From a virus (taxonomy: Duplodnaviria; Caudoviricetes): a stretch of DNA of 64,000 nt. The translations under genes and the position numbers were made by a program. Where the stretch lies: the IMG/VR virus record IMGVR_UViG_3300042914_003272, positions 1-64,000 of that record; one strand, given 5' to 3'. The notes beneath the pieces are model-generated. The model saw nothing but the letters and a program-made list of their open reading frames with translations, was not told where the DNA came from and made no database searches. Positions within the stretch are counted from its first letter, which is position 1. Each line of letters begins with the position of its first letter. This document shows, piece by piece, positions 5,587-63,995 of this stretch.

Positions 5587-5608
5587 GCTAACGCCGCAGG
5601 AGTGGTGA
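5587..5608 (+). promoter_or_regulatory. class A hairpin element
   Basis: CGGC-TAAC-GCCG, core+11nt+TGA. Confidence 0.7.
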
Positions 5609-5636
5609 AGTTATTCAATAATTAGTGGAGTAGTTT

Positions 5637-5933
5637 ATGAAAACAATATTTAACAAAGAAGGTCACGGAGACGATGCAGAAAGCTTGCATCAATTTGTTG
5701 ACAGGAATAAGATAGAAAAAGATAGCAACCATGCTACTTTACGAATTGACAAAGATGATTGGATTTCTATCTTTTACAAAGCAACTAACGGAAAGTTTTA
5801 CAAAGAAACGACCTCTTGCGGCTACGAAATTCATCTTTATGAATTTGAGTCTGAAGAAGAATATCAGACTTGTTTAAAAACTTGTTTGTTTGTTAATTGC
5901 GGTATGGGGTTATCCAATAATAACCCCACCTAA
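5637..5933 (+). CDS. hypothetical protein
   Basis: GGAG RBS, class A element upstream. Confidence 0.6.
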   Translation: MKTIFNKEGHGDDAESLHQFVDRNKIEKDSNHATLRIDKDDWISIFYKATNGKFYKETTSCGYEIHLYEFESEEEYQTCLKTCLFVNCGMGLSNNNPT

Positions 5934-7190
5934 GTCTACTTTGGTATAGCTGCTGGTCATTTTACTAGCTCCTATACCAACGCATTCATCAACATAAGTA
6001 TAACTGGAAGTTCTTAATTCTATTTGAGTTATTGACTGGTTTTGCTTACTAGATGATATGCCAGAATAAATATCTTCATATTGATAACTAGTAACTTTTA
6101 AATCTACAGTTACAATGTTTTGGCTCTGCTTGCTAAAAGATATTCCATTATAAGAATCATCGGCATAAACCTGATGGGTAATATCTCCAAAAGTAAAATA
6201 AAATATGTTTGATGGAGTATCAACTAGCTTTCCATAGAAGTTAAAGTGAGAGACAATTCTATAATGTTTATTTAGTTCTAATTGAAATAATCTTTCTTCA
6301 TTAACAGCAGCATAATCAATTACTGTATAGCTCCCAGTTGTGTTAACAGTTAGGCTATAACCAATAATAAATTGACTCTCACAGCTAGGGGAATTCCAGG
6401 TGACAAAGATATTATTTATATCTTCACAATAAGCTTTTTGTAAATAATCTGGAGGGGAAATGTAAGGGGTTATAGATACTTTTTGGCATTCTCTATCAGA
6501 AACAATCCCTTTGCTTACCGAAATTCCATAATGTGTAGAAGTTGGGGTGTTGTAAACAACTAAATCTTGGAAAATAGCTGGGTTATTTTCCAGCTTTACC
6601 CTAAGAATGATTGGCAGTCCAGTCCCGCTATCACATCCAGAAGTGTAACAAGTTGATTGAATAAATATAGTTGGTTCTGCTATAGAGTCATTATCAAATA
6701 ATACGGTTTTATTTCCTGCTCTTTGTTCCCACTTAAAATTTTTACCATCACTTTCTATAGCTCCAGTTAGTTTGAATCCAGTAGCAGGTGGGCATACAAT
6801 AACAAATGATGGAATCAACAAGTTAATAAATGTACCACTATCATCCTCAGCTACAGTTACCTCCCAAAACCCAGTATTAGAGTTGGAACTATAATAAAAA
6901 TAAGTGGTTTTATTGGGTTCTTCTTTAATCTTAGAAGGTTGTAATTCTAACGCTTTTAAATATCTTTTATAGGCAGACTTGAAGTTATACTCTTCTTGAG
7001 GATTAAATTCCCTCTTTCGACCAGTAATAATATCATCTATATTTGGGTTTTCACTTTTACCTTCTTCAAAATCAAAAGCATCAGGATTAGGTTCTGTAGA
7101 CTTAGGAGCAATAAACGAAGTCCTGTTAGACTGCCCTTTGGCAGCCCAGGGTTTTAACTTGTTTATTTTACCATTCCATCTTGATGCCAT
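5910..7190 (-). CDS. putative virion protein (Ig/FN3-like beta domains)
   Basis: 426 aa, FKWEQ..G and VTWNSP..IIGYSL patterns. Confidence 0.5.
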   Translation of the reverse strand: MASRWNGKINKLKPWAAKGQSNRTSFIAPKSTEPNPDAFDFEEGKSENPNIDDIITGRKREFNPQEEYNFKSAYKRYLKALELQPSKIKEEPNKTTYFYYSSNSNTGFWEVTVAEDDSGTFINLLIPSFVIVCPPATGFKLTGAIESDGKNFKWEQRAGNKTVLFDNDSIAEPTIFIQSTCYTSGCDSGTGLPIILRVKLENNPAIFQDLVVYNTPTSTHYGISVSKGIVSDRECQKVSITPYISPPDYLQKAYCEDINNIFVTWNSPSCESQFIIGYSLTVNTTGSYTVIDYAAVNEERLFQLELNKHYRIVSHFNFYGKLVDTPSNIFYFTFGDITHQVYADDSYNGISFSKQSQNIVTVDLKVTSYQYEDIYSGISSSKQNQSITQIELRTSSYTYVDECVGIGASKMTSSYTKVDLGGVIIG

Positions 7191-7221
7191 GATTTTAGTT
7201 ATTAGTTTGTGATATAATTCT

Positions 7222-7257
7222 TCAAAGAAATAGGGGCGATTGCCCCATTAGTGGTGA
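7222..7257. promoter_or_regulatory. class A hairpin element, bidirectional
   Basis: GGGGC-GATT-GCCCC, TGA 11 nt away on both strands. Confidence 0.7.
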
Positions 7258-7286
7258 TGTAATTGATTCGTAAAAGGAAATAAACA

Positions 7287-7685
7287 ATGCCTAAATTAAT
7301 AATTTCAAATGAATTAAAATTAGATTATCTTCAAGACCAGATAACACCCCAGGAGTTATTTGCCAGATGCCTAGAGGAAGGGCTTATAAATGAGATTTAT
7401 CTTCAGAAGATGATGAACTCTATGGCAACCGCTATGTTTTCTGTGTGGCGTGAATTAGGTATGCCTGATGAAATCTTTGACTCCATTATTAAAGGAGATT
7501 CTAAGGCTTTACAGGAAGCTATTGCCTACTTAAAAGCTGATAATGTTTCTGATAAAGAACGAGCATTAAAGGGAAACGTTCTTAATTGGACAATTAATAC
7601 TGTGGGATTAGGATATCAATTAGGAGCTATCTTTCAAAGAGATGATAAAACCCCAGGAGAAGAAGCCCCTATGATAAGAGGTTAA
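7287..7685 (+). CDS. hypothetical protein
   Basis: AGGA RBS, class A element upstream. Confidence 0.6.
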   Translation: MPKLIISNELKLDYLQDQITPQELFARCLEEGLINEIYLQKMMNSMATAMFSVWRELGMPDEIFDSIIKGDSKALQEAIAYLKADNVSDKERALKGNVLNWTINTVGLGYQLGAIFQRDDKTPGEEAPMIRG

Positions 7686-10789: not shown

Positions 10790-10836
10790 AAATATTATTT
10801 TATTTAAGTTCTTAGTAGATACAATTCCTAGTAAGG

Positions 10837-10858
10837 GCTAATGCCCTAGTGATGGTGA
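10837..10858 (+). promoter_or_regulatory. class A hairpin element (antisense, no + ORF)
   Basis: AGGGC-TAAT-GCCCT, +11nt TGA. Confidence 0.65.
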
Positions 10859-10870
10859 TTTAGATTGGAA

Positions 10871-11359
10871 TTAAAACCCAAAGCTACCAGCTAACTGAGT
10901 AAATTCAACTTTTCTACTAGCCACCGAAGTGTCAGCTACACCTGGAAGCGCATTAATGTAAACACTTCCAGTTCTGCTAAACATTTGTTGCTGCCAACCT
11001 TCTTCGTTATAGTTAGGAACGTGAAGCATCTGAGCTAAAGTTCTAGTTTCTTCCCTATAATTTTCTTTCCATAATCTCAAGTCCTTAATCTGTTCTCTAA
11101 GAATTGTTCTATTAACATCCCCTGCATAGAACTCTTTAGTACCAAATCTAACGGTTGTAGTTTTGGTTGCCTTCATAGCATCATAGGCATCATCACAGAT
11201 ATCTAACTGATACAACACCTCTGTTTTCATATACTCGGAAAAAATGGTATTACAGGCTTCTTCTACCTGTGCTAAGTCACCTGCGTCAATACCAACTCTT
11301 GCACCCATACCAAGGTGAAAATAGACTCTTTCTTTGTCGTTAAATGATAAAGCTACCAT
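10871..11359 (-). CDS. putative head-tail connector/adaptor
   Basis: LS..DKERVYFHLG N-terminus, helical, downstream of head genes. Confidence 0.45.
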   Translation of the reverse strand: MVALSFNDKERVYFHLGMGARVGIDAGDLAQVEEACNTIFSEYMKTEVLYQLDICDDAYDAMKATKTTTVRFGTKEFYAGDVNRTILREQIKDLRLWKENYREETRTLAQMLHVPNYNEEGWQQQMFSRTGSVYINALPGVADTSVASRKVEFTQLAGSFGF

Positions 11360-13828: not shown

Positions 13829-13852
13829 TCAACTATCCTCTCAAATAAAGGG

Positions 13853-13874
13853 GCGATTGCCCCGGTGTTGGTGA
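13853..13874 (+). promoter_or_regulatory. class A hairpin element
   Basis: GGGGC-GATT-GCCCC, +11nt TGA. Confidence 0.7.
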
Positions 13875-13976
13875 AAGCTAAAAGCTATAACAGCAAAACT
13901 GCTCTGGTAAACTAATAGTTAGAACTTAGTTTTCCTAGCAAAATAAACGGAGCAGTAAGCAAAGCGTCTGCAAAAT

Positions 13977-14405
13977 ATGGTTAAGAAAAAATCTGAACTG
14001 GATTTAGACTACATTCCTCCAAGGTGGAAACCTGGGGAAGCTGTAGTTCTTCTAATGAACCGAGATGGTAAAACTTATTTTGTGGGTGGTTACGAAGTTT
14101 TTAATCCCGAAAAAGAACACAGCTTATGTAAAGGGTATATGCCAATTACATTACCTTCTACTAAAAAGCCCCGTTATAGGGAATTGTTAGTAGTTAAAAA
14201 GGGTCAAAAAGGTAGACCTGTTAGAAAAAAGGAAAGTGAAGTTCTTAAATTATCCGATGTTCCTAAAGGTAAGATTTACTCATTTGAAGAACTCTTTGGC
14301 TGTGCCGGAGGAGTAACTGTTATGGCAGGGTCTTATGCTCAGTCAGAGCAGGAAGATTTAAGCCTCGGTATAGCACCTTTTGTAGAAGAAATTATTGAGG
14401 AGTGA
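13977..14405 (+). CDS. hypothetical protein
   Basis: 142-aa ORF downstream of class A element 13853. Confidence 0.6.
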   Translation: MVKKKSELDLDYIPPRWKPGEAVVLLMNRDGKTYFVGGYEVFNPEKEHSLCKGYMPITLPSTKKPRYRELLVVKKGQKGRPVRKKESEVLKLSDVPKGKIYSFEELFGCAGGVTVMAGSYAQSEQEDLSLGIAPFVEEIIEE

Positions 14406-15004: not shown

Positions 15005-15269
15005 CGGATGTTACCCTAAAGGCTCTTTATCCTTTAGCTCTTACAGTTAAACCACTACCTGTAAGTCCAGACTATCTCTTCAACTCAGTGAGTTGTTCGG
15101 CACTCGTGTTGGGATTATTGCTTGAGTTGCTCACCCATTAGTCGTTACACCTTCCTGGGTACTTATTACTCTTCCCCTGGCTTGGCACGGTATTTGCCAT
15201 TTAAGTGGCGGCATCCACCGTTTTCACCGAATTATTGCCTACTTGTTGCCAAGTAGCGAGACAATATTC
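15005..15269 (-). ncRNA. group I self-splicing intron (265 nt, no ORF) in major capsid gene
   Basis: P1 GAGAU/GUCUC with U-G at splice site, P3 UUCGGU/GCCGAA, P7 GACUA/UAGUC, GUAACGACUA and AAGAGAUAGUCU core elements, terminal G. Confidence 0.92.
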
Positions 15270-16386
15270 ATCTCCAAATGGCTATGACAAACCGTTGAAA
15301 ATCGTCGTTGTTATTAAGTAGAATTTCTGGTCCATTACCACCTAATCCAACCCCAATAGCTTCAGCCCCATAGAAGATTCCCAGTTCTCCAGTTCTAACT
15401 GCACTACCATTAGGTGCATTAGTAGTGTTAACAGAGTTGGTATAATTAAGTGTAACCTGTGCTTTAGGTAAGTTGTTAGAGGCGAAAAATCTTACGCCGT
15501 CAAAAACAAAACCCATAGGCATCATTACTTGACCCATTACATCGTTTGCCTGCCCACCGGTTAAACCAGATTGCCAAGGAGCAGCATTGAAGTTTATTTG
15601 GGGAGGAGCAAAACTACCAGCAGCACCGTTAGTCATGGCAGATGCCGGAACTAAGCTGGGGTTACTAGCGTAGTATCGGGTAATCTCTAGGAACTTGCTA
15701 TCACTTCTCAAATGTTTGATGAAGATAGCAGAACAAGCGCAGACATAGTTACCATCTTCAAACTGTGGGCAGTTACGGGTAAACAAATCTGCTACTACGG
15801 TCTCTAAGTCATTGACATTAAATTGAGGTGGTTGTCCGTTAAATCCAAAGTCAGCTTGAGTTAGGTTGACCGTTGCACCATCGGCAATACCCCGTGGATT
15901 GTAAATAAAAGTTGTCTTCAATAACTCGTTGGTATATAGACGGTCTTCCCATTTACGGAAGTCCTGGAGAAGGTTAGAACTACCAATACTATCGTGAAAC
16001 GCACGTTGCCCGTATTGCCATAGTTGGCGTTGAGCAGTCATGATGTCTTTGATAGGAATCTGAAAAGTAGATGGACTTTCAGGATTGTTTGGGTCGGCTG
16101 GTCCAGTATACTCTTCGAGAGTTAATATCACTTTATCTTTGGTGATATTCCGAGAGTTGTTTACACCAATTACCTGAGTAGCACCCCGTTGACGTGCAGC
16201 TTTATTGAAGCCAGCTTCAGGGGTTTGCCAGAATGCGTATCTGTCTAACTGAATATTGTCACCCGGCTGCTTCATGAAATCATGTTTTACCCGTGGTCGA
16301 GTAATGTATTTCATAATGTATTTAGCATCAGGGCGATACAGTTCTTGTCCTAAAAGAATGGGAAAATCTGCATCAATAAAAGCCAT
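15270..16386 (-). CDS. major capsid protein exon 1 (393 aa after splicing)
   Basis: FIDADFPILLGQELYRP...NDDFQRFVIAIW capsid-like sequence downstream of portal/scaffold; GAGG RBS. Confidence 0.85.
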
Positions 16387-22151: not shown

Positions 22152-22199
22152 TTTAAATCCTGTATTTGTTTTGCTTGCAGTAGTTTTCCTATTACAAAG

Positions 22200-22221
22200 G
22201 CTAACGCCTTAAAAATGGTGA
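22200..22221 (+). promoter_or_regulatory. class A hairpin element
   Basis: AAGGC-TAAC-GCCTT, +11nt TGA. Confidence 0.7.
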
Positions 22222-22240
22222 TGTTTGTAATTTGTGACTT

Positions 22241-22659: not shown

Positions 22660-22698
22660 TTTATGGGTCGCTACGCTCCCAACTAATTGGTGTAGTTC
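22660..22698 (+). promoter_or_regulatory. class B hairpin element
   Basis: TTTATG..GCTACGC (22670)..TGTAGTT. Confidence 0.7.
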
Positions 22699-22714
22699 AT
22701 TTGGTTATTGGTTT

Positions 22715-22984: not shown

Positions 22985-22990
22985 CTTATT

Positions 22991-23052: not shown

Positions 23053-23067
23053 AACCAAGTTAAATAT

Positions 23068-23647: not shown

Positions 23648-23654
23648 CCCTTTT

Positions 23655-51900: not shown

Positions 51901-54622
51901 CAAGGTAAGTGAGTACGGAACACCAATTCCCAATGAGTATGGATTTCCTGAAGAAGTATTAACACCGTTATACGGAAACCCGTTAACCCTCCCAAGGTCA
52001 GCACAGATAGCTAATAAAGCTGAATTTATATCTCGTCCTCGCTTAATGGTACAGGATTTTAAAGGCATAACTCCTGACTATCAGCCTATTCCCGATGGTA
52101 TGAGCTATGAAGAGGCAGACAGGAAAGGACTATTGAATCCCATCTTTAATAGCAGAACAGCAGGGTTAAATAGCAGTTACCAAATCCCTTTACCTAAAGG
52201 TGTGGGGTTAGCTAGGGTTCTTGATGAGTCTAACCCCAGAACTCAAGCGGCAATTGCCGCACAAGTGGCGAGGCGGCAAATCCCTTCCTTAGTTCAACAA
52301 AGGCAGTCTATACTTGCTGACAATTCTTTTACACTTGAAGAAAAGAAAGCTAAAGTTGATGAATTATTTGCACAACCATTAGCAGTTCTTGGTGGTGATG
52401 AAGTTGATGCCTTAATTAAGATAGCGAAGAAGGGAGAATCTAAACCTGCATTTGATAGAAAGTACACTATTACTCCTAGTAGAACAGCAGGTGTTGAGAG
52501 TCCACAATATACTCAATATTTAGACTTAGCAACTTATGATGATAGTCCTGACTTGACATTCTGGAAAGAGAATATTCCTGGTGTAGTTCCCCAAGGTGTA
52601 ATTGATGGTGCTTATCTTCCAGTAACAACTATTCCTAGACCAATAAATAAGGAAGGTAAAAAAGGCTGGTTAATAAATGACCAAATTTACACTACAGAAT
52701 CCGGTAGACAGGTCAGGGGAGATAAGGCTGTTAACTATGTCAATATCCCACTTAATTTAGATAGTGTTAGCTCTTACCTTCCTAAAAGCAAACGTGAGGA
52801 ATTAGAATTAAAAGGTTTTAGTGATGATGCTATACAAGCTTGGGCAAATGTTAACCCTAATCTTGCTAGAGATAATGCCTTGGCTAACGCCAAGATATTA
52901 ATTGATGGAAAATATTATGATGTAACCCCACAAGCTACTGTAGCCGAATTTAATCCTGTTGCTGGTGGGAATTATGCAATGGCTGAGACCAGGAGTCAAG
53001 GTAGAGCAGCAAGGATAGATTTACCATTTAAAGCTGGTGCAAATATATCTGAACCTACTCCTGAATGGATTGCCCAACAAGCTGCTGGTGGCAATTTAAG
53101 ATTTAATGCCGACGACTATATTAGTCCTGATGATAAGGCAATTTTAAATCAGAAAGAAGTTTACAATGCTGGTTATGAAGAACCAGCAGATATTCTTGGA
53201 GCTATCAGCAGAGTTCAACAGAAGAAAAATCAGATTGATGCAGTAATTAGTAACAGAAAACAACGTCAAGTAGCTAAACCTCAAAGTAATATTGAAGTTC
53301 TAAAATACAAGTCCTATGTACTAGGTAAAGAGGCACAAGAGGCAAGGACTGATATTGATAGGCTTAGGGCTTTACAACAAAAAGCACAAATAGATTTATT
53401 GATAGACTCTCCGCAACAGAGAGTTGCTAATAATCTAGATGGGAAAATAAGTTCATCTATTGATGAGAACTATACAACCCTTGGTCAAGACAGGTCTTTT
53501 AGTATTAATCCAGAAATCTTGCCACTATCTGATGCGGAAAGGGTTGAGTTTATAAGAAATTATCAGCCTAACGCTTCTGATGTTTTATTGAACACAAAAG
53601 ATATAGCTCCTGTTCAATCTACTCGTCCTAGAGATTTACAAGAATACTCTGACTATTTAGCAGAAGAAATTAACCGTGCTAGTGCAGCACATAACGCAAT
53701 AGTCAACATTGAAGATTCGCCTGAAATTGTAATCAAAAGACAAGGGAATCCACAACAATTAAACGCATTTATTTCTGCCGCAAATACTTTGGGAATGCAA
53801 ACTGAAGACGATTCTTTTAGGTATAAAAATAATCCTGATGAAAAGTTAACTGCTTCCGTTACTGGTAGTTTACCTAATACATATTTACCCTATGAACAAG
53901 CACAGGAGTTAAATGAATCTAGGCTTTATCATCCACAAGATATTCAGGATGCCATAGAAAGTGGTGATTTTAGTGAACGGCAAATTAGGTCTATGCAAAA
54001 TGCTAGACTACTACCTGCTTACCGCACACAACAAAAAGTTGAACTACCTACAGTTCCCACTTCTAATGTTGCTAAATTAGGTAGGGTAAAATTTGTTGAA
54101 GACTACATGGGAAACCCTGAAAGTATGTTGGAAGGTATGGGGCTTGATGGTGGTTCTATCCCTGGGGATTATATTCCAAATCCGTCAAAAGTGATTCAGC
54201 AATTTGTACCCGCAGGCAATCAGGTAATTAATATAGTTCCCAGCAGTTCCGAGAACTATCAATACAGAAGTGGTGGCAATGCCGATTATGGAATATGGGA
54301 TATGCCTATTACTAATGACTTAGGAGGTATGGGATTTGATGGTGGTTCTATCCCTGGGGATTACATACCCCGTCAAGTTAGAACCAATGTACAGCAAGGG
54401 GTTCAGTCAGAACCTCAACAAGTTAGAACCCCTAGAACCCCTGGAACTCAATCTTTCAATACTTCCATAGACCCTGAAGTTAAAATAACAGGTGGTATGA
54501 AGATTCCTAAATGGGCTATTCCTGCTACACTGGGTGCTGTGTGGTTAGGGTTAGCTGCTAACGCCCGTAGACAACAGGATGAGGACAGGAGACAACGGCA
54601 AGGTGTGGTAAACAGATACTAA
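48968..54622 (+). CDS. giant (1884 aa) probable internal virion/ejection protein
   Basis: Almost Cys-free, Q/N/P-rich, repeated R[TV]A[GN] motif, duplicated GMG.DGGSIPGDYIP, C-terminal hydrophobic helix. Confidence 0.55.
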   Translation: MNNEIEYLVSQMTPGQLNAFINQSFPDLVGGNFMFRQGQTEQDKKRIVADRLSKAVASPAVDATQEAVLNSLGRYVSPEVQQSQQSRTANIGNYTNFDDESYGAVLGSYDDFNYDLLDDSAYIPSAGIQKSTGASQAPLDIAGVQNAIAQDPNWQPRNDYERWALGFIRGEDSGVNPTVVPVNTNRTAGIQTPKTQGEKYQFNVLENRENRTANIPNIPIPKPVGIKTDLLTGLVYDYNRGLVFNPVNGVTQKLISDGRTIPTKLEIPNLIQGEQSNSIPVPSIRPNIGFNVNENPEFAGDGNFFIQQGNQLTRTTPGVSYQSTALSSNNNSQYKWHAPLAIKNNSTLAEYTNLSPQARQYLIDRQWNRDKERAYIQQQQEVGNQITDGEGRFFDTASYIANRDNSVPYPRTIGIAPKIAGVGQEYSPEVMSRIGQGGFLNNAGSIKLPNTWIDKETNQRVFSKGRGTPATIVYTGDKEGSAIPSISIPRIQGGGNELISFEDAVKRQLISPEQYNNYINQAAQTKFIPAGNMDSFNRDNIKLYETTDNQGKNYRATYMNPLTKEVFNVTQNGGFYLVRPAVSEESGGLPIRKQTTNLAQEMTDINRVMREGGRDNLVDIIREDPTNPGLEAFTRPVPAINPITGETINKYVHTGNLVNPETLQPESIEPGVDYSQYAVLDKEGNPIPTDNFIEIWDKRMGTPKPPNVQLLGEASRDAFKPVARKWVDDNNPQDLFNYFNANAESSGQSMQALDLSRGGSRTAGVRKAPADMYISPYLDYDAAGNLQLRRNFVPERGETTIFNSGNSITVSAPTGYQDTNATSAYPSLQETDYLGGRLAFNPDGIVVDVPSNAPAAKGINNFTPASEFTSSSPQVVRDTRTGKVIYDPNRTVYVRTGNTGLDDDNFAVVPYKEDKPIVSRVANINSPQSIVINDGKVVGKNALVQQEIFGNQEVYPGDFTNTKFYRFKTNPETPLGAYKVSEYGTPIPNEYGFPEEVLTPLYGNPLTLPRSAQIANKAEFISRPRLMVQDFKGITPDYQPIPDGMSYEEADRKGLLNPIFNSRTAGLNSSYQIPLPKGVGLARVLDESNPRTQAAIAAQVARRQIPSLVQQRQSILADNSFTLEEKKAKVDELFAQPLAVLGGDEVDALIKIAKKGESKPAFDRKYTITPSRTAGVESPQYTQYLDLATYDDSPDLTFWKENIPGVVPQGVIDGAYLPVTTIPRPINKEGKKGWLINDQIYTTESGRQVRGDKAVNYVNIPLNLDSVSSYLPKSKREELELKGFSDDAIQAWANVNPNLARDNALANAKILIDGKYYDVTPQATVAEFNPVAGGNYAMAETRSQGRAARIDLPFKAGANISEPTPEWIAQQAAGGNLRFNADDYISPDDKAILNQKEVYNAGYEEPADILGAISRVQQKKNQIDAVISNRKQRQVAKPQSNIEVLKYKSYVLGKEAQEARTDIDRLRALQQKAQIDLLIDSPQQRVANNLDGKISSSIDENYTTLGQDRSFSINPEILPLSDAERVEFIRNYQPNASDVLLNTKDIAPVQSTRPRDLQEYSDYLAEEINRASAAHNAIVNIEDSPEIVIKRQGNPQQLNAFISAANTLGMQTEDDSFRYKNNPDEKLTASVTGSLPNTYLPYEQAQELNESRLYHPQDIQDAIESGDFSERQIRSMQNARLLPAYRTQQKVELPTVPTSNVAKLGRVKFVEDYMGNPESMLEGMGLDGGSIPGDYIPNPSKVIQQFVPAGNQVINIVPSSSENYQYRSGGNADYGIWDMPITNDLGGMGFDGGSIPGDYIPRQVRTNVQQGVQSEPQQVRTPRTPGTQSFNTSIDPEVKITGGMKIPKWAIPATLGAVWLGLAANARRQQDEDRRQRQGVVNRY

Positions 54623-54633
54623 GAATACATGGG

Positions 54634-54655
54634 GCTAACGCCCCTTTAGTGGTGA
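54634..54655 (+). promoter_or_regulatory. class A hairpin element
   Basis: GGGGC-TAAC-GCCCC, +11nt TGA. Confidence 0.7.
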
Positions 54656-54661
54656 GGTATC

Positions 54662-54985
54662 TTGGAAGTAACAATGTTAATAAGAAAAGAGAACACTCAG
54701 CTTACACTTAAAAAACATGGTGAAGATGAAAATGTTGTAATAGAATTTTCATTGATGGACAAAAAGGTTGTTTTAACAATTCACTTTTCCCATCAGAATT
54801 TAAGTACCAGGATTTATGACAATAGGTATGCAACTCTTGAACATTATCAACGGCTAATTCCATTAGCTGCTGAAATAATTAAAGGTCGGGAAGAGTTTAT
54901 TAAAGAACCATGTGGCTTTCTAGAACAACAGTCTTGGAAAGTTCAAAGCTTAGAAGACAAAGAGAATGCAATGCTAACGCATTAA
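54662..54985 (+). CDS. hypothetical protein
   Basis: Class A upstream. Confidence 0.5.
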   Translation: MEVTMLIRKENTQLTLKKHGEDENVVIEFSLMDKKVVLTIHFSHQNLSTRIYDNRYATLEHYQRLIPLAAEIIKGREEFIKEPCGFLEQQSWKVQSLEDKENAMLTH

Positions 54986-54994
54986 TAGTTATGA
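54973..54994 (+). promoter_or_regulatory. class A hairpin element
   Basis: AATGC-TAAC-GCATT compensatory stem, +11nt TGA. Confidence 0.7.
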
Positions 54995-55069
54995 AGTAAA
55001 AGTAAAACCCCTCTTAGAAATCTCCTAGGAGGGGCTTTTGATGTTTGATAATTGTAGGAGTATTATATC

Positions 55070-55802: not shown

Positions 55803-56306
55803 ATGGAATATCGCGCAATATCACTGCATCAACCTTGGGCTTCTCTTGTTGCTTTGGGAATTAAGAGGTATGAGACTAGAAGTTGGAGTACAAAGTTTAG
55901 AGGAAAACTTCTAATTTGTTCTGCAAAGAAAAAGTACGTACCAGATATTAGCTTTGTAAATAAAGTTTTCGACTTAAAAGATGTAAGACAATTTGACAGA
56001 ACAAGGCTAGACTTTATTGGTACGAACACAGAGTACGTAGAATTTCTTCCTTTGGGAAAAATCCTTTGCGTAACTGACTTAGTTGATTGCTTAAAAATGG
56101 AATCTTACCCTAAACACAAAGAAAATATAATTCTTGAAGACGTTCCAGAATTAGAACAGCTTTGTGGCGACTGGCAAGCAGGTAGATACGCATGGGAATT
56201 AGCTAATCTCATGACATTACCCAAACCTATTCCTATTAAAGGGAAACAAGGTTTATGGATTCCTGATAGTTCAATTATTCAAGACATTGAAAAACAATTT
56301 CAATAG
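55803..56306 (+). CDS. ASCH-domain protein
   Basis: AISLHQPWASLVALGIKRYETRSW..RGKLLICS..KGKQGLW. Confidence 0.9.
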   Translation: MEYRAISLHQPWASLVALGIKRYETRSWSTKFRGKLLICSAKKKYVPDISFVNKVFDLKDVRQFDRTRLDFIGTNTEYVEFLPLGKILCVTDLVDCLKMESYPKHKENIILEDVPELEQLCGDWQAGRYAWELANLMTLPKPIPIKGKQGLWIPDSSIIQDIEKQFQ

Positions 56307-56328
56307 GCTAACGCCTAAATGTTTGTGA
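56307..56328 (+). promoter_or_regulatory. class A hairpin element (ssb)
   Basis: TAGGC-TAAC-GCCTA, +11nt TGA. Confidence 0.7.
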
Positions 56329-56372
56329 GGAAATGCAATAATTTCCTCTTTACTCACTTACCAGTTAAATCC

Positions 56373-57032
56373 ATGAACATTATCATCATTACGCTCACAG
56401 TTAACTTTGTAGAATCCTTTACTGATATCCCTGGGCAACAACCATTTTCAATTGCTCAGTGTAGTTATCTTCAAACTGACAAAGACGGTAATCCTATAGA
56501 ACACTTTGTGACTATTAAAGGATTTAATAACTCCTACGATAAAACCTCTTCTGGCATTACCTCTGATAGATTAAGTTTATTTAAGCCAGGAATGAAAATG
56601 CTTGTTACAGGTCAATTATTTACTGAGCAAAAAGATAAGGAAACTAAACAAGTTATTGAACAGCCTTATATACTTGCCCATTCAGTTTGTCCAGTTAAGG
56701 CAGAAGTCAATTACAATACCATTTATCTTGCAGGTAAGATGATGAAAATGCCTGAAAAGAGAATTTATGAAAGTGGCAAACTGTCTATCACTACTTCACT
56801 TTTAATTAAGGAAGGGAGGAAGGGGTATTTCTACAACGTCACTGCTTGGAATAAGCAGGGTGAAACAGTAGAAAGATATTGTCGCAAAGGTGAGAATCTT
56901 GGGATTGAAGGCACTTTAGTTTTTGAATCCTGGAATGACAAGACCACTGGTGAACCCAGGACTGGCATTAAGATTACTGCTAATAAAGTGCGACTGATGG
57001 GAAGTAAAGATTCAAAAGATGATGAGTTCTAA
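56373..57032 (+). CDS. ssb: single-stranded DNA-binding protein (two OB folds)
   Basis: NTIYLAG..VTAWNKQGE..YCRKG..IEGTL..SWNDKTTGEPR; acidic DDEF tip. Confidence 0.85.
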   Translation: MNIIIITLTVNFVESFTDIPGQQPFSIAQCSYLQTDKDGNPIEHFVTIKGFNNSYDKTSSGITSDRLSLFKPGMKMLVTGQLFTEQKDKETKQVIEQPYILAHSVCPVKAEVNYNTIYLAGKMMKMPEKRIYESGKLSITTSLLIKEGRKGYFYNVTAWNKQGETVERYCRKGENLGIEGTLVFESWNDKTTGEPRTGIKITANKVRLMGSKDSKDDEF

Positions 57033-57054
57033 GCTTACGCTTTACTAACTGTGA
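57033..57054 (+). promoter_or_regulatory. class A hairpin element (helicase)
   Basis: AAGC-TTAC-GCTT, +11nt TGA. Confidence 0.65.
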
Positions 57055-57126
57055 TGAACAAAATAAGCCCTGTTATAATTAAATTATAGCAGGGTTTTTA
57101 ACTAGCAAAATAAACGAGTGAAAACA

Positions 57127-58758
57127 ATGGCTCAAACAATAAATACTTTAAATACTCTAATAGATTCCGACTACCAGAAAGCGGTTTATAATGCCATAGA
57201 ATACGGTAGTCACAACATCATCGTTGAGGCTCTAGCTGGTAGTGGGAAAACAACTCTAATTAAAAGAAGTTGTGAAATCATCTACAACAAGCAGGGTGTT
57301 AAACCTTTAGCTATTGCGTTTGGTAAACGTATTCAGAAAGAGCTTGAGTTAAAGATTGGCAAGATAGCCCAAGTTCAAACTCTTAACTCCCTTGGGCATG
57401 GATTAGTCCGTAAAGCCCTAAATTATAGAGATTTAGATGTTGATAGGAAAAAGTACCTTCAAATAGCCAGAAAAGTAGTTAAAGACCAGAATGGAACTAC
57501 AGACTGGGAAGTAAATGAAAAGCTGTCTAATGAGTTGTGGGTTCTAACTACATTCTCAATGAAGACCTTAACTGGCACTAAATCCAGAGAAGCTTTAGAA
57601 AAGATGATTCAGGATTACAACCTGGATATCTGTCATCTTAATACTGTAGGAAATTGGTTAGGGTACGTAATCAAAGAAGGGGATAGACTAGCTAAAGAAG
57701 GCTTTCTCTCATTTGAAGACCAACTATTTCTTCCCTACCTATGGAAGCTAAACTCTACCTATAAATATGCTTGGGTATTTGGTGATGAAATGCAGGACGT
57801 TTCTAGTGCAGCACTAGAACTTTTCCTGAAGTTTACTGATGAAAATACTCGTATTCTTGGAGTAGGGGACAGATGGCAGTCTATTATGGGCTTTGCTGGT
57901 GCAAATACAGATGCTTTGGACAGGTTAAAGTATCGCACCAATGCAATATCTTTGCCATTGTCAATCTGTTATAGATGCCCTAAGTCTCACTTGAAATTAG
58001 CACAGAAATTAGTACCATCAATAGAAGCTTCACCTACTGCCATTGAGGGTGTAATAATTGATATTGATTTAAAAGTTAACATGGCAGGGCATTACGACTA
58101 TGAAGAATTACTCCCACATTTAACAGGTGGTGAGTTAATTGTTTGTAGAAAAACCGCACCGTTAATTAGTCTTTGCATTAAACTCATAATTGCCCGTATT
58201 CCTGCAAAAATCATAGCTGGTGACTCTAACCTTGAACAGTCTCTATCAAGTCTTATAGACGACATTTCTAAGGTGTCTGGATTTAGATTTGAAAGATTCC
58301 CAGAGTTTGTAGAAATCTTATTTCAGAGCAGACAGTCCAGGCTAATTGAGCAAGGCGCATTTAAAATAATTGCAAATCTGCGTGATAGGTGTGATGCTTT
58401 GTTAGCTTGCTTTGAGGGATTTGATAATCTGGTTAACATCAAGTCATTGAAAAAATCACTTAGCAATCTATTTCTTGAAAGGCAAGATAGTGTTACCCTT
58501 TCTACCATACACACTGCCAAAGGATTAGAAGCAGAGCGTGTTGTATTCTTGCATCCTGAATTATGCCCTCATACATTTAAGGGGCAAAACAAAGAAAGTT
58601 TACAGCAAGAAAAGAATCTTCAATATGTGGCTCTCACTAGAAGTAAACGCACTTTGATTTTAGCTTGTAGTGGTGGAGTTAAAAAACCTCAATCCAAGAA
58701 GACTGATGATTGTCCAAAAGATTGCCAGAAGTCCAAAGAAGAGGAATTAGATAGTTAG
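57127..58758 (+). CDS. UvrD/Rep-like SF1 helicase
   Basis: ALAGSGKTT, DEMQD, GDRWQSIMGFAGA, YRCP, TIHTAKGLE, YVALTRSK. Confidence 0.92.
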   Translation: MAQTINTLNTLIDSDYQKAVYNAIEYGSHNIIVEALAGSGKTTLIKRSCEIIYNKQGVKPLAIAFGKRIQKELELKIGKIAQVQTLNSLGHGLVRKALNYRDLDVDRKKYLQIARKVVKDQNGTTDWEVNEKLSNELWVLTTFSMKTLTGTKSREALEKMIQDYNLDICHLNTVGNWLGYVIKEGDRLAKEGFLSFEDQLFLPYLWKLNSTYKYAWVFGDEMQDVSSAALELFLKFTDENTRILGVGDRWQSIMGFAGANTDALDRLKYRTNAISLPLSICYRCPKSHLKLAQKLVPSIEASPTAIEGVIIDIDLKVNMAGHYDYEELLPHLTGGELIVCRKTAPLISLCIKLIIARIPAKIIAGDSNLEQSLSSLIDDISKVSGFRFERFPEFVEILFQSRQSRLIEQGAFKIIANLRDRCDALLACFEGFDNLVNIKSLKKSLSNLFLERQDSVTLSTIHTAKGLEAERVVFLHPELCPHTFKGQNKESLQQEKNLQYVALTRSKRTLILACSGGVKKPQSKKTDDCPKDCQKSKEEELDS

Positions 58759-58789: not shown

Positions 58790-58825
58790 TCATAATCATT
58801 GGGGCAATCGCCCCTTTGATTTTGA
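58790..58825. promoter_or_regulatory. class A hairpin element, bidirectional
   Basis: GGGGC-AATC-GCCCC, TGA at 11 nt on both strands. Confidence 0.7.
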
Positions 58826-58865
58826 TGTACAATGTTTACTAGCAAAATAAACAGAATCAATAGTT

Positions 58866-59483: not shown

Positions 59484-59491
59484 CCAAGAAG

Positions 59492-59513
59492 GCTAACGCC
59501 TTAATAGTAGTGG
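59492..59513 (+). promoter_or_regulatory. class A hairpin element
   Basis: +11nt TGG. Confidence 0.65.
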
Positions 59514-59558
59514 AGTAACTAAAGGTAATTATGACTGAGGGTAAATATTGTATCAACC

Positions 59559-59900
59559 ATGAAAACTAAACTGGTAATTGACTGCACAATCAAAGGTAAT
59601 TTGTATCAACAAACGGTCAATGACCTCATTGACTTAGACAAGTTTATAGCCACACATCAAGCTCCTGAATACTTATTCTTTCATCCTGAGTACACAGCTT
59701 CCTTTAAGTTGTGTACAAAAGACATCTCACGATACTATTGTGAGTTTGCAGTGGCTGATAGAAAGTATGAGATTAAAACTCTGCAAACTTTATTGTTTTG
59801 TTTAGGTGATAATGTAGATGTTAAGGGTATTCCCTTGTTCTTTCAAATAGGGAATAGTTTGTTTGAAGTGAGTGCTAATGGGCTAACGCCCAACTGGTAG
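59559..59900 (+). CDS. hypothetical protein
   Basis: Class A upstream. Confidence 0.5.
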   Translation: MKTKLVIDCTIKGNLYQQTVNDLIDLDKFIATHQAPEYLFFHPEYTASFKLCTKDISRYYCEFAVADRKYEIKTLQTLLFCLGDNVDVKGIPLFFQIGNSLFEVSANGLTPNW

Positions 59901-59903
59901 TGA
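59882..59903 (+). promoter_or_regulatory. class A hairpin element
   Basis: TGGGC-TAAC-GCCCA, +11nt TGA. Confidence 0.7.
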
Positions 59904-59925
59904 TGTAGTTTTAAAGGTGAACGAA

Positions 59926-60722: not shown

Positions 60723-60737
60723 TCTTAGGAAACAACG

Positions 60738-60759
60738 GCTAACGCCTTACTAGTCTTGG
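60738..60759 (+). promoter_or_regulatory. class A hairpin element
   Basis: +11nt TGG. Confidence 0.65.
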
Positions 60760-61136
60760 AGATAACCATTTTCTTGATGTCGAGAAAATGGTTTAAATCG
60801 GTACTAAATAAATTAGGAGTAGTTGAGAAAGTGTTTACAAGAAAACAATACATGGCAAATGAATGTACTCACCGCGAGTATTATGGTCAATTTGTGACTG
60901 ATGAGATTAAACAAGCAGTGTTAAGGGTGTTTTCCAGGGAGAAATTAGTTCATGCTTTTAAGAAAGATGAAGATTTTAATACTCTGCCTTTACACCAGTG
61001 GGATTTCATACCTTATGAGTTCTCTGAATTTGCTAAAGCAATGAAAGAGGCTAACGGTAATAGTAGTATCTCTCTAAGTGATTGCGTTTGCACTTCTAAG
61101 GAAGCTGCTAGACAAATCATAGAAGAAATCGAATAA
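60756..61136 (+). CDS. hypothetical protein
   Basis: Class A upstream; true start likely internal. Confidence 0.55.
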   Translation: MEITIFLMSRKWFKSVLNKLGVVEKVFTRKQYMANECTHREYYGQFVTDEIKQAVLRVFSREKLVHAFKKDEDFNTLPLHQWDFIPYEFSEFAKAMKEANGNSSISLSDCVCTSKEAARQIIEEIE

Positions 61137-61548: not shown

Positions 61549-61586
61549 GCCGAACTCGAAAAACTCTCCCTAGAGTTCGGCTGTTT
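61549..61586. terminator. hairpin between convergent genes
   Basis: AGCCGAACTC...GAGTTCGGCT. Confidence 0.5.
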
Positions 61587-61647
61587 ATGGGGTGAAAATC
61601 CCAATCACTGAAGAACTGAGCAAGCTTGTCCTAGAAACTGACCTAGA

Positions 61648-62997
61648 TTACCAGGTCTGCTGAACCATATTTTTAAACTGAGTATATTCAGCATCGAACA
61701 ACAACTTTACAGTTCCTGTTGGTCCATTTCTGTGTTTAGCAATTATAATCTCTGCTAAACCCTTATCCATGGTTTCGGAATTGTAATACTCATCCCTGTA
61801 CAAAAACATTGCTATATCTGCTTCTTGCTCAATACTTCCGCTTTCACGTAAGTCACTTAGCATAGGACGTTTATTTGTTCTTGCTTCTACGGCACGACTT
61901 AATTGAGATAGAGCTATAACAGGACAATGGAGTTCTCTAGCCATTTGTTTTAACATTCTAGTGATGTATGACAATTCACTTACCCTGTTGTCTTTCCCAT
62001 CAAATCTAGGGTCAGACATTAGTTGTAGGTAATCTATCATTACCAAACCAAGTTGCCCTTGTTCACTGGCTAAACTACGGCATTGGCTGTTAATAACTCC
62101 AACACTAACATTACCAGTATCACAGATGTGAATGTTGGGACTTATATTCCTGGTAGCAAGTTGTAAACTATCCCATTGTTCTTTAGTTAATTTCCCCGTC
62201 TTCAATGCAATAGATGGAACTTTTGCATCAGCACCTTGCATTCTATTTACTAATTGTTCTTTACTCATTTCCAGAGAAAAGATAGCAACAGGTAAATTGT
62301 GTTGGGTGGCAATATACTTGGAAATATTTACCGCAATTGCTGTTTTTCCCATACTTGGTCTACCAGCAACTATGATTAAATCACTTCTCTGGAATCCCGC
62401 AGTCATGGCATCTAAATCATAGAAACCACAGGGAATACCAGGAGGAATTAAACCATTGGCAACATTAATTGTGTGGTTAAAATTCACCGCAGCAATGGTG
62501 TTAGCGTTGGTAAAAATGGCTTTTCTACCTGATTGAGTAACAGCATAAATCTTCTGTTCTGCTATATTTTTTACCTCATCAATAGATAAATCGGTTTGAT
62601 GTCCTAATTGAATTAACTCATTTCCAGTTTTGATAAGTTGCCTACGGTCATATTTTTCTATTACTAATTCTGCCAAGGCATCAATATTAACAGCACAAAC
62701 TACGCTGTCTGTCAATGTTGCCAGTTTATTCCTACCACCAATCCTCATTAATTTATCGTGGTCAGTCAACCAACTTGTTATTGATAATAAATCCGTTGGT
62801 TTACCTTGAGAGTGTAAAACTACAGCAGCATCGTAAATAATGCCGTGGTCACTAAGGTAAAACATTTCAGGACGTAGTTTATCTATTACCCTAGAAATTG
62901 CATCTGGGTCTAATAAAATACCACCTAGAATCGCTGCTTCTGCTTCCATGTTTTGTGGGGGTAAAGACGGATTACCACTAAAGTTTAGTTTTGACAT
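61648..62997 (-). CDS. dnaB: replicative DNA helicase DnaB
   Basis: PPQNMEAE, AGRPSMGKT, FSLEMS, IDYLQL, LSQLSR, RPMLSDLRESGSIEQ, KHRNGPTG; no intein. Confidence 0.96.
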   Translation of the reverse strand: MSKLNFSGNPSLPPQNMEAEAAILGGILLDPDAISRVIDKLRPEMFYLSDHGIIYDAAVVLHSQGKPTDLLSITSWLTDHDKLMRIGGRNKLATLTDSVVCAVNIDALAELVIEKYDRRQLIKTGNELIQLGHQTDLSIDEVKNIAEQKIYAVTQSGRKAIFTNANTIAAVNFNHTINVANGLIPPGIPCGFYDLDAMTAGFQRSDLIIVAGRPSMGKTAIAVNISKYIATQHNLPVAIFSLEMSKEQLVNRMQGADAKVPSIALKTGKLTKEQWDSLQLATRNISPNIHICDTGNVSVGVINSQCRSLASEQGQLGLVMIDYLQLMSDPRFDGKDNRVSELSYITRMLKQMARELHCPVIALSQLSRAVEARTNKRPMLSDLRESGSIEQEADIAMFLYRDEYYNSETMDKGLAEIIIAKHRNGPTGTVKLLFDAEYTQFKNMVQQTW

Positions 62998-63091
62998 AAC
63001 TGTTAACCTGTTTATTTTGCTATTAAATCTTCAATGCCAATAAGGCAATAGCCTATGATGTTTAATTCATAGGCTACTATAAATAGTATAA

Positions 63092-63295
63092 TTACTCTTG
63101 AGGAGTGGGTGGTGCTATTCCAGCAATCCTTTTAGCATCTAAAAAGATTATCTTTGCATTGATATTGTTGGCTCTTTGTTGTTCTTCCAAAATACTTACA
63201 AGTTCATTTTGATTCATAGGTGCTTTTGACTTAACAGTGGTAGTGCCTTGATAGCCTTCACTGTCTTTGTAGTGAACTATGTAGGTTACAGCCAT
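63092..63295 (-). CDS. hypothetical protein
   Basis: AGGAG RBS. Confidence 0.55.
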   Translation of the reverse strand: MAVTYIVHYKDSEGYQGTTTVKSKAPMNQNELVSILEEQQRANNINAKIIFLDAKRIAGIAPPTPQE

Positions 63296-63356
63296 TTTCT
63301 TTTCTCCTGTTAGTTGGTAAAATTTAGCAAACGAAATGTTTGTTTAGAAACCTCAC

Positions 63357-63995
63357 TTACGCCACATTCCTTAAATTACTCAATACTTTGTTTTTGTCTG
63401 CAAGCATATTGGGGAAATTGTCAGGGAATGTTTTACTAATCCACAATTCCCAGACATCTATCTCAGCTTGAGATTTGGTGTAATGGAACTTAGATAAGTC
63501 ACATTTACATTCCAAATATTCTTTGTATTGAGTTTTTACCCAAGCCCAAGAGGTTTTAACCCATGAAGGAAGATTATCTATTTCCTTCAACACTCTAGCG
63601 GCGTTAGCCGCAGGTGATGTGGTGTACTCCTGGAAATCCAACATCATGGCTTCAATTAAAGCTAAACCCTGCTCATCATATTCTCGTTTAGCAAGCCATA
63701 TCATAACTTGACCAGAAGTAATTTCTTTGCCTTCGTAATGCGGTGTCCTGGGTAGATAAACTTCTTTAAGGTATTTAACTACGTCAGGTTTATATTGGTG
63801 TTTGCCAAGACTAGTCCTCCAAGGCTGCAAGGGTTTAGGCTTCCATTTGTCCTCAAACTTCTGGGTAGAAGAATAAGTGTTTTGTAGTGGAAGTGGTTGG
63901 TATTCTAGAGGTACTGAGGGTGGAAGTGTTGGTATTGAATCTACTACTGGAAACTCCTGTAGTGGACTAGCCATCTCGCGCACAGGGAAATCCAA
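63357..63995 (-). CDS. hypothetical protein, probably 5'-partial (possible replication protein)
   Basis: Runs to window edge, upstream of dnaB. Confidence 0.45.
   Translation of the reverse strand: MDFPVREMASPLQEFPVVDSIPTLPPSVPLEYQPLPLQNTYSSTQKFEDKWKPKPLQPWRTSLGKHQYKPDVVKYLKEVYLPRTPHYEGKEITSGQVMIWLAKREYDEQGLALIEAMMLDFQEYTTSPAANAARVLKEIDNLPSWVKTSWAWVKTQYKEYLECKCDLSKFHYTKSQAEIDVWELWISKTFPDNFPNMLADKNKVLSNLRNVA
63587..63608 (-). promoter_or_regulatory. class A element on minus strand pointing at dnaB
   Basis: Minus strand GCGGC-TAAC-GCCGC, +11nt TGA. Confidence 0.65.

Follow-up and report, generated by a model that had tools for sequence, protein, structure and literature searches.

A recurrent hairpin at a fixed distance from TGA as a candidate promoter of a two-barrel RNA polymerase in an uncultured cyanophage

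The early promoters of bacteriophage N4 are conserved from -17 to +1, contain some stem positions that need only pair and carry a C:G-closed loop with G and A; they depend on gyrase and single-stranded DNA-binding protein (SSB; PMC4496689), and single-stranded template DNA is what is recognized (PMC4496689 and PMC13037366). The latter source also defines the mini-hairpin DNA of Hirao and colleagues as the GCG-N1-2-AGC type, which is found in the N4 promoter hairpin GCGGAGC as well as in the phage G4 and ssiA primase sites. Very little is known about the promoters of single-chain two-barrel RNA polymerases. The enzyme gp66 of the crAss-like phage phi14:2 transcribes single-stranded or denatured DNA only and its early transcripts share no common motif, while the discussion of the same preprint describes QDE-1 as preferring and robustly transcribing single-stranded DNA (10.1101/2020.03.07.982082); the YonO promoter is stated not to have been determined (PMC5467207), and gp64 and gp96 of phage P23-45 have been assigned GC-rich and AT-rich motifs in passages that leave a hairpin unmentioned. 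Here we describe a hairpin element, termed class A, in the IMG/VR virus record IMGVR_UViG_3300042914_003272, and relate it to a polymerase of this kind encoded by the same virus; a sharp signal of the same type is found across four phage lineages that have diverged from one another and in some two dozen loci of cyanobacteria.

The record (75,163 bp, 99% complete class, no end repeats, 38% G+C) comes from an uncultured cyanophage, and its first 64 kb form the stretch analysed, referred to as the window. An earlier note, made from the letters alone, had proposed that the hairpins mark promoters, that they are read as hairpins and that RNA starts at or near the following TGR, where R is A or G. 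This inference is supported in all three parts and contradicted in none, and a likely enzyme can now be named. The class A sites are very probably promoters, and the two-barrel polymerase of the phage is their likely reader; the full statement, in which the sites are promoters of this polymerase, read in hairpin form with a start near TGA, is favoured with somewhat less assurance.

The hairpin element and its place among the genes

The 25 plus-strand cores first listed all have the form G(C/T)-N4-(G/A)C and are followed after exactly 11 nucleotides (nt) by TGR, as had been claimed, with TGG instead of TGA at 27888, 59492 and 60738. The regular expression GC.{4}GC.{11}TG[AG], combined with a stem filter of at least two further Watson-Crick pairs, matches 23 times on the plus and 10 times on the minus strand of the window, compared with means of 0.27 and 0.255 and a maximum of 3 in 200 second-order Markov simulations. 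Across the whole 75-kb genome, TGR follows 11 nt after 26 of the 35 copies of GCTAACGC, 12 nt after two and 10 nt after none. The orientation of the loop is likewise fixed, since GCTAACGC stands 11 nt before TGR 26 times and GCGTTAGC only twice.

When 37 curated sites from the whole genome are aligned, conservation is confined to positions -3 to +26, counted from the core start, with information close to zero on either side and the consensus rrGGCTAACGCCyn-A-n-TAGT-n-GTGA-n-GtAa. The element is accordingly a block of about 30 nt, made up of a 5-bp stem, a 4-nt loop (the loop length at every window site), an 11-nt spacer with a conserved A-TAGT-G and the box TGAnGTAA. A position weight matrix (PWM) gives 48 matches above 12 bits in the genome and 43 at 16 bits or more, the best match in 20 simulated genomes reaching 13.9; the matrix was made from the same 37 sites that it later recovered, so that these figures show the separation of the family and are no independent test. 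Twelve sites of at least 12 bits, ten of them of at least 16, lie beyond the window at 64-75 kb, and the window itself holds 26 plus and 7 minus sites. As for the two minus-strand copies noted earlier, that at 63608 is strong (PWM 32.7) though it lies within the open reading frame (ORF) 63357-64448(-), while the weak copy at 23640/23647 (14.3 bits) barely exceeds the simulation maximum and is better read as a plus-strand hairpin followed by T8. The first list lacked the window members 18911(+), 7243(-), 43880(-), 63052(-) and 33505(-), and its entry 40272 is corrected here to a site within a minus-strand ORF with one pair beyond the core.

The covariation of the stems is confirmed. Among 42 places in the genome that fit GGC-N4-GCC plus TGR, pair -2/9 is Watson-Crick in 36 (permutation mean 13.9) and pair -3/10 in 31 (permutation mean 14.1), counts reached in none of 2000 permutations; G:C, A:T, C:G and T:A all occur among the outer pairs, with four Watson-Crick types at -2/9. 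Pair -4/11 is formed in only 4/42, and the stem is therefore exactly 5 bp long. In the relative G001, whose DNA is about 77% identical, the outer pairs are Watson-Crick in 29/32 and 26/32 sites. Individual alignments were used for the comparison with G001, the per-column identity profile around sites being uninformative (coding flanks, paralogous alignments), and they reveal compensatory changes at 34876 (GGGGT..ACCCC in this genome, GGGGC..GCCCC in G001), 54973 (AATGC..GCATT and AAGGC..GCCTT) and 66224 (GAAGC..GCTTC and GGGGC..GCCCC). The hairpin is under selection as a structure.

Loop and stem are traded against each other. A coding-strand TNNC loop, which is G..A on the template, is present at 25/42 sites, and these have a mean of 0.36 G:C among the two outer pairs; the 17/42 readings with other loops, which include reverse readings of two-way hairpins and are partly non-independent, have a mean of 1.71, both pairs being G:C in 14/17. 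The template strand of the core reads GCGTTAGC, of the GCGNNAGC mini-hairpin type, and the assignment of template GC-GNNA-GC to a family of stable mini-hairpins agrees with PMC13037366. GCGNNAGC itself occurs 50 times in the genome compared with 7.0 expected, and the template cores in related elements are GCGAAGC, GCGTAGC, GCGATAGC or GCGCTAGC.

The sites are enriched upstream of genes, as the promoter proposal supposed. Of 43 sites with PWM of at least 16, 33 are wholly intergenic on a crude ORF map, compared with 14% of the genome (binomial P = 3e-20), and at 23 an ATG-initiated ORF of at least 40 amino acids (aa) begins 15-60 nt after the T of TGA (P = 1e-10; 12.6% for 2000 random positions), the distances from TGA to ATG clustering at 20-48 nt. 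Furthermore, a site is present in 29/69 intergenic gaps of at least 25 nt and in 9/13 divergent junctions. At the two-way sites 7236/7243 and 43873/43880, one hairpin carries a TGA box on each side, each facing a gene, and G001 has at least four such sites. One-mismatch forms of the cyanobacterial HIP1 palindrome, such as GCGATTGC, occur within the two-way hairpins. Orientation matches local gene direction; the minus sites 7243, 43880 and 63052, too, precede minus genes.

Conversely, 10837(+), 40272(+) and 18911(+) oppose minus-strand structural genes. These sites and 33505(-) possibly act as antisense or internal promoters. G001 retains 40272, with all 23 nt from GGC to TGA identical and one difference after TGA, as well as 33505. 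The readings 13860(-) and 18911(+) lack TGA, and no minus-facing site was found at the head of the portal operon near 22.2 kb. A separate word, AGCAAAATAAAC(AG), is repeated 14-15 times in the genome (e.g., 30495-30510, 58840-58855 and 63015-63030). It often separates a TGA box from the start codon and possibly has a role in the leader or in translation.

The sites of the window are as follows, with the 30-nt block, strand, core start and PWM score in bits; distances to ATG are counted after TGA.

5584-5613, plus: core 5587, 36.2; ATG of ORF 5637-5933 at +31
7217-7246, minus: core 7243, 19.4; minus half sharing its hairpin with 7236; ATG of 5910-7190(-) at +34
7233-7262, plus: core 7236, 36.7; plus half of the two-way site; ATG of 7287-7685 at +32
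10834-10863, plus: core 10837, 31.9; antisense to 10871-11359(-); no ATG-ORF inside 220 nt
13834-13863, minus: core 13860, 20.7; doubtful minus reading of hairpin 13853, AGA for TGA; ATG 13 nt on
13850-13879, plus: core 13853, 19.8; ATG of 13977-14405 at +105
18908-18937, plus: core 18911, 24.4; degenerate, CGA for TGA
22197-22226, plus: core 22200, 34.3; divergent junction; ATG at +22
24117-24146, plus: core 24120, 34.4
26639-26668, plus: core 26642, 36.2; ATG at +27
27885-27914, plus: core 27888, 32.2; TGG; ATG at +31
30466-30495, plus: core 30469, 26.0
30593-30622, plus: core 30596, 42.0; closest to consensus; ATG at +29
33479-33508, minus: core 33505, 32.7; within the 3' end of the terminase gene
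34873-34902, plus: core 34876, 28.6; core pair GT..AC, GC..GC in the G001 orthologue; ATG at +21
36134-36163, plus: core 36137, 38.6; GTG start of 36181-36507 at 25 nt
40269-40298, plus: core 40272, 34.0; within and antisense to ORF 40202-42040(-)
41231-41260, minus: core 41257, 18.4; weak, within an ORF
43854-43883, minus: core 43880, 23.3; minus half, heading the minus gene block 36543-43799
43870-43899, plus: core 43873, 33.7; plus half of the two-way site; ATG at +22
45616-45645, plus: core 45619, 33.3; then a terminator-like 19-bp hairpin (45643-45684) and T run
45928-45957, plus: core 45931, 32.5; ATG at +38
46187-46216, plus: core 46190, 33.3; before the polymerase gene, then a 19-bp hairpin (46214-46255) and T run
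54631-54660, plus: core 54634, 39.3; ATG at +21
54970-54999, plus: core 54973, 26.4; stem AATGC/GCATT, AAGGC/GCCTT in the G001 orthologue
56304-56333, plus: core 56307, 34.1; before the SSB gene; ATG at +47
57030-57059, plus: core 57033, 18.0; TTAC loop, before the UvrD-like helicase gene
58801-58830, plus: core 58804, 27.8; ATG at +43
59489-59518, plus: core 59492, 39.3; TGG
59879-59908, plus: core 59882, 36.2; ATG at +25
60735-60764, plus: core 60738, 29.3; TGG; ATG at +20
63026-63055, minus: core 63052, 25.9; before dnaB; ATG of 61648-62997(-) at +36
63582-63611, minus: core 63608, 32.7; within ORF 63357-64448(-); kept in G001

The candidate polymerase and related lineages

The candidate reader is encoded within the window:

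46356-48767, plus: predicted single-chain two-barrel RNA polymerase, 803 aa, assigned by fold and DxDGD site

The protein contains DTDGD. It has 46 homologues in a large protein collection, and when 31 of them are aligned, D420, D422, G423 and D424 do not vary. Searches of Pfam, including the RdRP family PF05183, gave no match to the 803-aa protein itself, while its homologue P0027 from a Rivularia bin (39% identical) reaches 24.7 bits against the RdRP cut-off of 23.8. Sequence searches of the PDB with the protein and with its alignment returned chance-level rows alone, and a fold search was therefore needed to place it. An AlphaFold model built from the 31-homologue alignment (mean predicted local distance difference test score 87, predicted template modelling score 0.82) was matched by Foldseek to maize RDR2 (E 7e-15), QDE-1 (E 7e-14) and the Thermus phage proteins gp62/gp64 (E 1e-9), and further to P23-45 gp96 (E 1e-5) and the crAss-like phi14:2 virion polymerase gp66 (E 3e-5), with the large subunits of cellular RNA polymerases ranked lower than these single-chain matches. 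Structural alignment with VIA-align gave Z 23.4 to P23-45-type gp64 (8f72; 441 residues, root-mean-square deviation 3.5), Z 23.2 to RDR2, Z 23.0 to gp62, Z 12.7 to gp96 and Z ~19 to QDE-1, the top three aligning over 441-590 residues. By its predicted fold, the protein is a single-chain two-barrel RNA polymerase.

No other polymerase was found in the genome. The T7-like family PF00940 had no match in it, in a weak search that also found none in any control genome, and a tblastn search of 50,697 phage records with the polymerase gave no match. Two 19-bp hairpins of near-identical sequence, each with TTTTT after it, stand on the plus strand upstream of the polymerase gene (45643-45684 and 46214-46255), in an arrangement that resembles an attenuator or leader. 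Directly 3' of it lies an ORF of 1884 aa (48968-54622, plus strand) without a Pfam, PHROG, PDB-sequence or usable Atlas match. Contigs of both metatranscriptome runs consulted start at 48969/48970; no class A site lies at this position, and strain divergence may explain such starts.

The same layout accompanies homologues of the polymerase in other genomes. Among the close relatives, the matrix finds 32 matches in G001 and 51 in G002. G003, a complete genome of 75.7 kb with a polymerase 46% identical, carries 16 copies of GGCTAACGCC, all on one strand, and has TGA 10 nt after GCTAACGC in 14/20 cores and at 11 nt in none. G004 (polymerase 26% identical) has 13 copies of GCTTCGC+10+TGA, 12 of which precede an ATG-ORF by 15-60 nt, and G005 (25% identical) has 10 copies of GCTACGC+11+TGA, seven before an ORF, compared with 0.13-0.14 for random positions in these two genomes. 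Two side observations concern G003 and G004. G003 is rich in the HIP1 palindrome, 9-mers with GCGATCGC, such as TGCGATCGC, reaching up to 42 copies. G004 contains the repeat GATGGCGC-TAC-GCGCC-CCGCAAGCTACGA in seven copies on both strands (e.g., 1906, 2354, 9038, 18669 and 30784), and this repeat was considered as a candidate promoter and dropped once the GCTTCGC+10+TGA class had been found.

A scan of one genome per prokaryote species yielded 46 loci with homologues, all cyanobacterial and mostly filamentous. Around these, GCT-N1-2-CGC is followed by TGA at a spacer of 10 nt in 147 cases, compared with 5-16 each at spacers of 7-9 and 11-14, and 23/46 loci hold at least three sites. The core is GCTTCGC in 103/144, and 117/144 sites lie 15-60 nt before an ATG-ORF. 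Among 138 distinct sites, 81 fall in a TGA-to-ATG peak at 19-26 nt (mode 21), a distance of the nearest start codons that lends support to a start at or near TGR, as earlier proposed. In a Phormidium genome of 7.1 Mb, GCTWCGC-N10-TGA has 30 matches compared with 11 for the reversed control; 5/30 lie within 14 kb around the polymerase homologue and 10 are one dispersed repeat. In the Phormidium genome G007, behind locus L053, the 20-mer GCTTCGCCCCTACTCTATGA is present in 10 copies across the chromosome as a dispersed repeat unrelated to the polymerase locus.

Between lineages, the loop letters change (AA, AT, AG, T, A), as do the length of the core (7 or 8 nt) and the spacer (10 or 11), while coding GCT...CGC, and with it template GCG-N1-2-AGC, stays constant. 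Loops of 3 nt are confined to G004, G005 and the cyanobacterial loci, and the 7-mer lineages have nearly no stem beyond the mini-hairpin. Tentatively, and with chances that we put a little short of even, a clade of QDE-1/YonO-like polymerases from cyanophages and filamentous cyanobacteria may start at a template mini-hairpin GCG-N1-2-AGC placed 10 or 11 nt before TGA, with a lineage-specific loop and spacer.

Synechococcus phage S-EIVl, which has a related portal, shows no class A site and no detectable polymerase homologue. For P23-45 (EU100883), no class A layout was found in the first 50 kb. Its GCTAACGC and GCTAGCGC hairpins at 39659-40998 were considered as class A sites and rejected as minus-strand hairpins with T-run terminators; at 39659, 40026, 40377 and 40998, GGG-GCTAACGC-CCC and GAGGGCTAGCGCCCTC are preceded by plus-strand A runs and stand as minus-strand terminators after small early genes.

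How the sites may be read

In the reading that we prefer, the duplex would be opened by supercoiling, SSB or the polymerase itself, the template strand would fold into the mini-hairpin, and the polymerase would bind this hairpin and the single strand after it as one rigid unit. RNA would begin at TGA or within a few bases downstream of it, so that the 5' leaders would measure about 20-30 nt, and one hairpin could serve two diverging genes where a strong GGGGC/GCCCC stem carries a loop that is palindromic or A/T. Recognition as one unit is argued for by the rigid spacing between hairpin and TGA, and the reading of a hairpin by covariation, compensatory changes in orthologues, the trade-off between loop and stem, and the template rule kept across lineages. 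A start near TGA is suggested because start codons rarely lie closer than about 19-20 nt in three lineages and because conservation ends 7 nt after the T. Since the relatives gp66 and QDE-1 use single-stranded DNA, reading of a single strand is plausible.

Several observations weigh against this reading. About seven sites have loops outside the G..A rule, and as single strands the hairpins have modest nearest-neighbour energies of -3.1 to -6.2 kcal/mol; to our knowledge, the parameters of the folding program do not model the special stability of mini-hairpins. The strong sites 10837, 40272, 33505 and 63608 lie inside ORFs or have no gene after them. The polymerase gene itself stands behind class A sites, which raises the question of the first polymerase molecules; these could be packaged in the virion or made by the host enzyme from promoters of a second class, described below. 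The metatranscriptome runs consist of assembled Logan contigs and are uninformative on transcript starts. Beyond this genome, G006, with a 27% identical homologue covering part of the protein, shows no comparable motif, and SPbeta (AF020713, 1-75 kb) has no GCT-N1-2-CGC+TGA layout upstream of yonK, the reported YonO start. The 46 cyanobacterial loci, taken with 10 kb on each side (761 kb in total), were chosen by the presence of the polymerase, and many are related, non-independent Microcoleus elements. Finally, homologues of a phage sigma factor are present in G001, G002, G003 and G005, all of them motif carriers, so that within this phage group the motif co-occurs equally well with either candidate reader, sigma or polymerase.

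The sigma factor is encoded in the window:

42042-42704, minus: sigma-70 family gene, 220 aa (Pfam Sigma70_r2, E 2.7e-14, 53.2 bits); region 4 not detected

Together with the host core enzyme it might read the sites as duplex, with GGCTAACGCC as a -35-like and TGAnGTAA as an extended -10-like element, and we regard this as unlikely. The encoded Sigma70_r2 protein and its homologues in the motif carriers fit such a scheme, as does the hairpin centre, which at about 21 bp from GTAA suits -35/-10 geometry. The TG-n-hexamer is like an extended -10, and GCTAAC-N17-GTA is like the AAC-N16-17-CGT of extracytoplasmic function (ECF) promoters. Compared with a sigma-70 promoter, in which TTGACA-like and TAnnnT hexamers stand 16-18 bp apart, however, class A has G in place of A at the second position of the -10 hexamer; GCTAAC-N17-GTAA is readable in ECF-promoter form, and the motif-rich cyanobacterial loci have no such sigma within 10 kb. 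A duplex reading predicts neither covariation of the outer pairs without sequence conservation nor the trade-off between loop and stem, and across lineages GCT...CGC is constant around a centre that differs both in its letters and in its length, the core having 7 or 8 nt, as expected of a loop and not of a -35 element. No sigma homologue turned up in S-EIVl or the partial G004. Neither tblastn with three phage sigmas nor a five-sigma profile found a match at E<=1 in G004, G006, S-EIVl or the 46 cyanobacterial loci, which were selected by the polymerase, extend 10 kb to either side and are in many cases related; nevertheless, at least three sites are present in 23 of the loci. Matches to sigma-70-like promoters at 44-64 kb are not enriched (48 compared with 57.9 +/- 7.7 in shuffles).

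A more natural promoter of the sigma type is offered by a second motif, class B, with its flexible spacing of 14-17 nt and TAGTTT box. Its 18 plus-strand copies at 22670-31606 and 45107-45696 have the layout TTTTTATGG-nn-GCTACGC-nn-CC, then 14-17 nt, then GTTGTAGTT(A/T)A, and usually stand after a terminator-like hairpin with a T run and shortly before small ORFs. The class B template strand reads GCGTAGC and is thus a mini-hairpin too, but has no TGA at 10-11 nt. Three class B copies and three class A sites are interleaved upstream of the polymerase gene, and either the phage sigma or the host enzyme may use class B as its promoters.

Quite unlikely, in our judgement, is a variant in which the polymerase uses the sites as promoters but recognizes them as duplex, the inverted repeat being a regulator site or an insulation from upstream transcription. 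The promoter and co-occurrence evidence fits it equally, the hairpins are small (-3 to -6 kcal/mol), and the Thermus phage polymerases are reported with AT-rich or GC-rich motifs, a hairpin being unmentioned in the accessible parts of the sources. The rigid spacing from hairpin to TGA speaks against it, as does the fact that across lineages the template GCG-N1-2-AGC rule alone is kept; furthermore, the 7-mer lineages, nearly without an outer stem, offer no palindrome to a dimeric regulator.

It is very improbable that the element acts in RNA, where it would precede each coding region of a polycistronic transcript as a signal for processing, stability or termination. The hairpin does stand directly after many stop codons (e.g., 54634, 56307 and 57033), the distance from TGA to ATG is tight, and the metatranscriptome contigs, which cover parts of 44-64 kb, cross the sites 59882 and 60738. 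However, sites are present at 9/13 divergent junctions, where no upstream transcript in the same direction is expected, and at two-way sites transcription of either arm would have to come from within the leader of the other. Upstream of the hairpin there is no conserved sequence that might serve as the real promoter. Where an intrinsic terminator would have its T run after the stem, class A has A-n-T-A-G-T-n-G at positions 11-18, and in a terminator scan 58804 alone passes, by virtue of its own tail. The conserved rule, moreover, is that of a DNA mini-hairpin on the strand opposite to the RNA-like one. The RNA-like loops UAAC, UUC and UAC are not known to be specially stable as RNA.

That the sites are single-strand initiation signals priming DNA replication, or junctions of mobile cassettes, is hardly credible: mini-hairpins do occur at G4 and ssiA primase sites (PMC13037366), the window is biased to the plus strand (26 to 7) and DnaB, SSB and UvrD-like genes are present, but orientation tracks gene direction, including at the minus sites 7243, 43880 and 63052, and in every lineage the sites stand 20-50 nt before start codons.

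Gene content and comparison with known systems

Other features of the window include the following.

15040-15279, minus: group I intron (Rfam RF00028, 53.4 bits), adjoining ORF 15268-16386 in the structural gene block
19103-21301, minus: portal-like protein, 38% identity to the Synechococcus phage S-EIVl portal
33338-34849, minus: large terminase
44543-45031, minus: dCTP deaminase-like protein
56319-57032: SSB
57118-58758: UvrD-like helicase
61648-62997, minus: DnaB

The intron is the sole hit in a scan of the window at Rfam gathering thresholds, in which the class A sites had no match, and no tRNA genes were found in the window. A megablast comparison of 8 kb with phage records gave no match, and no isolate in the phage collection matches as DNA.

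The candidate polymerase is of the same kind as P23-45 gp64, P74-26 gp62, SPbeta YonO and phi14:2 gp66, all single-chain two-barrel enzymes with a DxDGD site. QDE-1 and RDR2 are among the closest solved folds (template modelling score ~0.52-0.55, Z 19-23); in contrast to the phage protein they are eukaryotic, have no known sequence-specific promoters and share 11-16% identity with it. If the clade-wide proposal is true, it would provide the first defined promoter type for this family, which would have converged with the unrelated N4 virion polymerase, and would suggest structure-guided initiation on single strands as an old property shared with the eukaryotic RNA-silencing polymerases. DNA mini-hairpins of the GCGNAGC and GCGNNAGC types are known from oligonucleotide chemistry, G4/ssiA priming sites and N4 promoters, and have no description as a genome-wide promoter class of a two-barrel polymerase. 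Our literature search found no hairpin promoter for the two-barrel polymerase family or for cyanophages; promoter logos of P23-45 and crAss phages, which lay outside the search, may bear on novelty. Should the assignment to the polymerase hold, it would pair a promoter with an 800-aa polymerase for biochemistry and structural work, possibly for orthogonal expression in cyanobacteria, and would supply a simple rule by which transcription units could be annotated from sequence in an uncultured group of cyanophages.

The closest parallel is provided by the promoters of the N4 virion RNA polymerase, as described in the sources cited above. In both systems a small hairpin lies upstream at a fixed distance, to TGA here and to the start in N4; the 5-bp stem falls within the 5-7 bp of N4, non-conserved positions need only pair, and the template loop is C:G-closed with a 5' G and a 3' A, as in GCGGAGC of N4 and at 25/42 sites here. 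There are also clear differences. N4 has three promoters at one genome end, whereas 43 sites with PWM of at least 16 are spread genome-wide here, some of them two-way; its loop has 3 nt, compared with 4 nt here and 3 nt in related lineages; and its conservation stops at +1, 11 nt away from the loop centre, whereas here the T of TGA lies 15.5 nt from it and the conserved block continues for another 7 nt. N4 uses a T7-like single-subunit polymerase, while the candidate here has the unrelated two-barrel fold. If our reading is correct, DNA-hairpin promoters would extend past N4 to an unrelated polymerase fold, and we rate as new the association of such promoters, so far those of N4, with that fold on a genome-wide scale.

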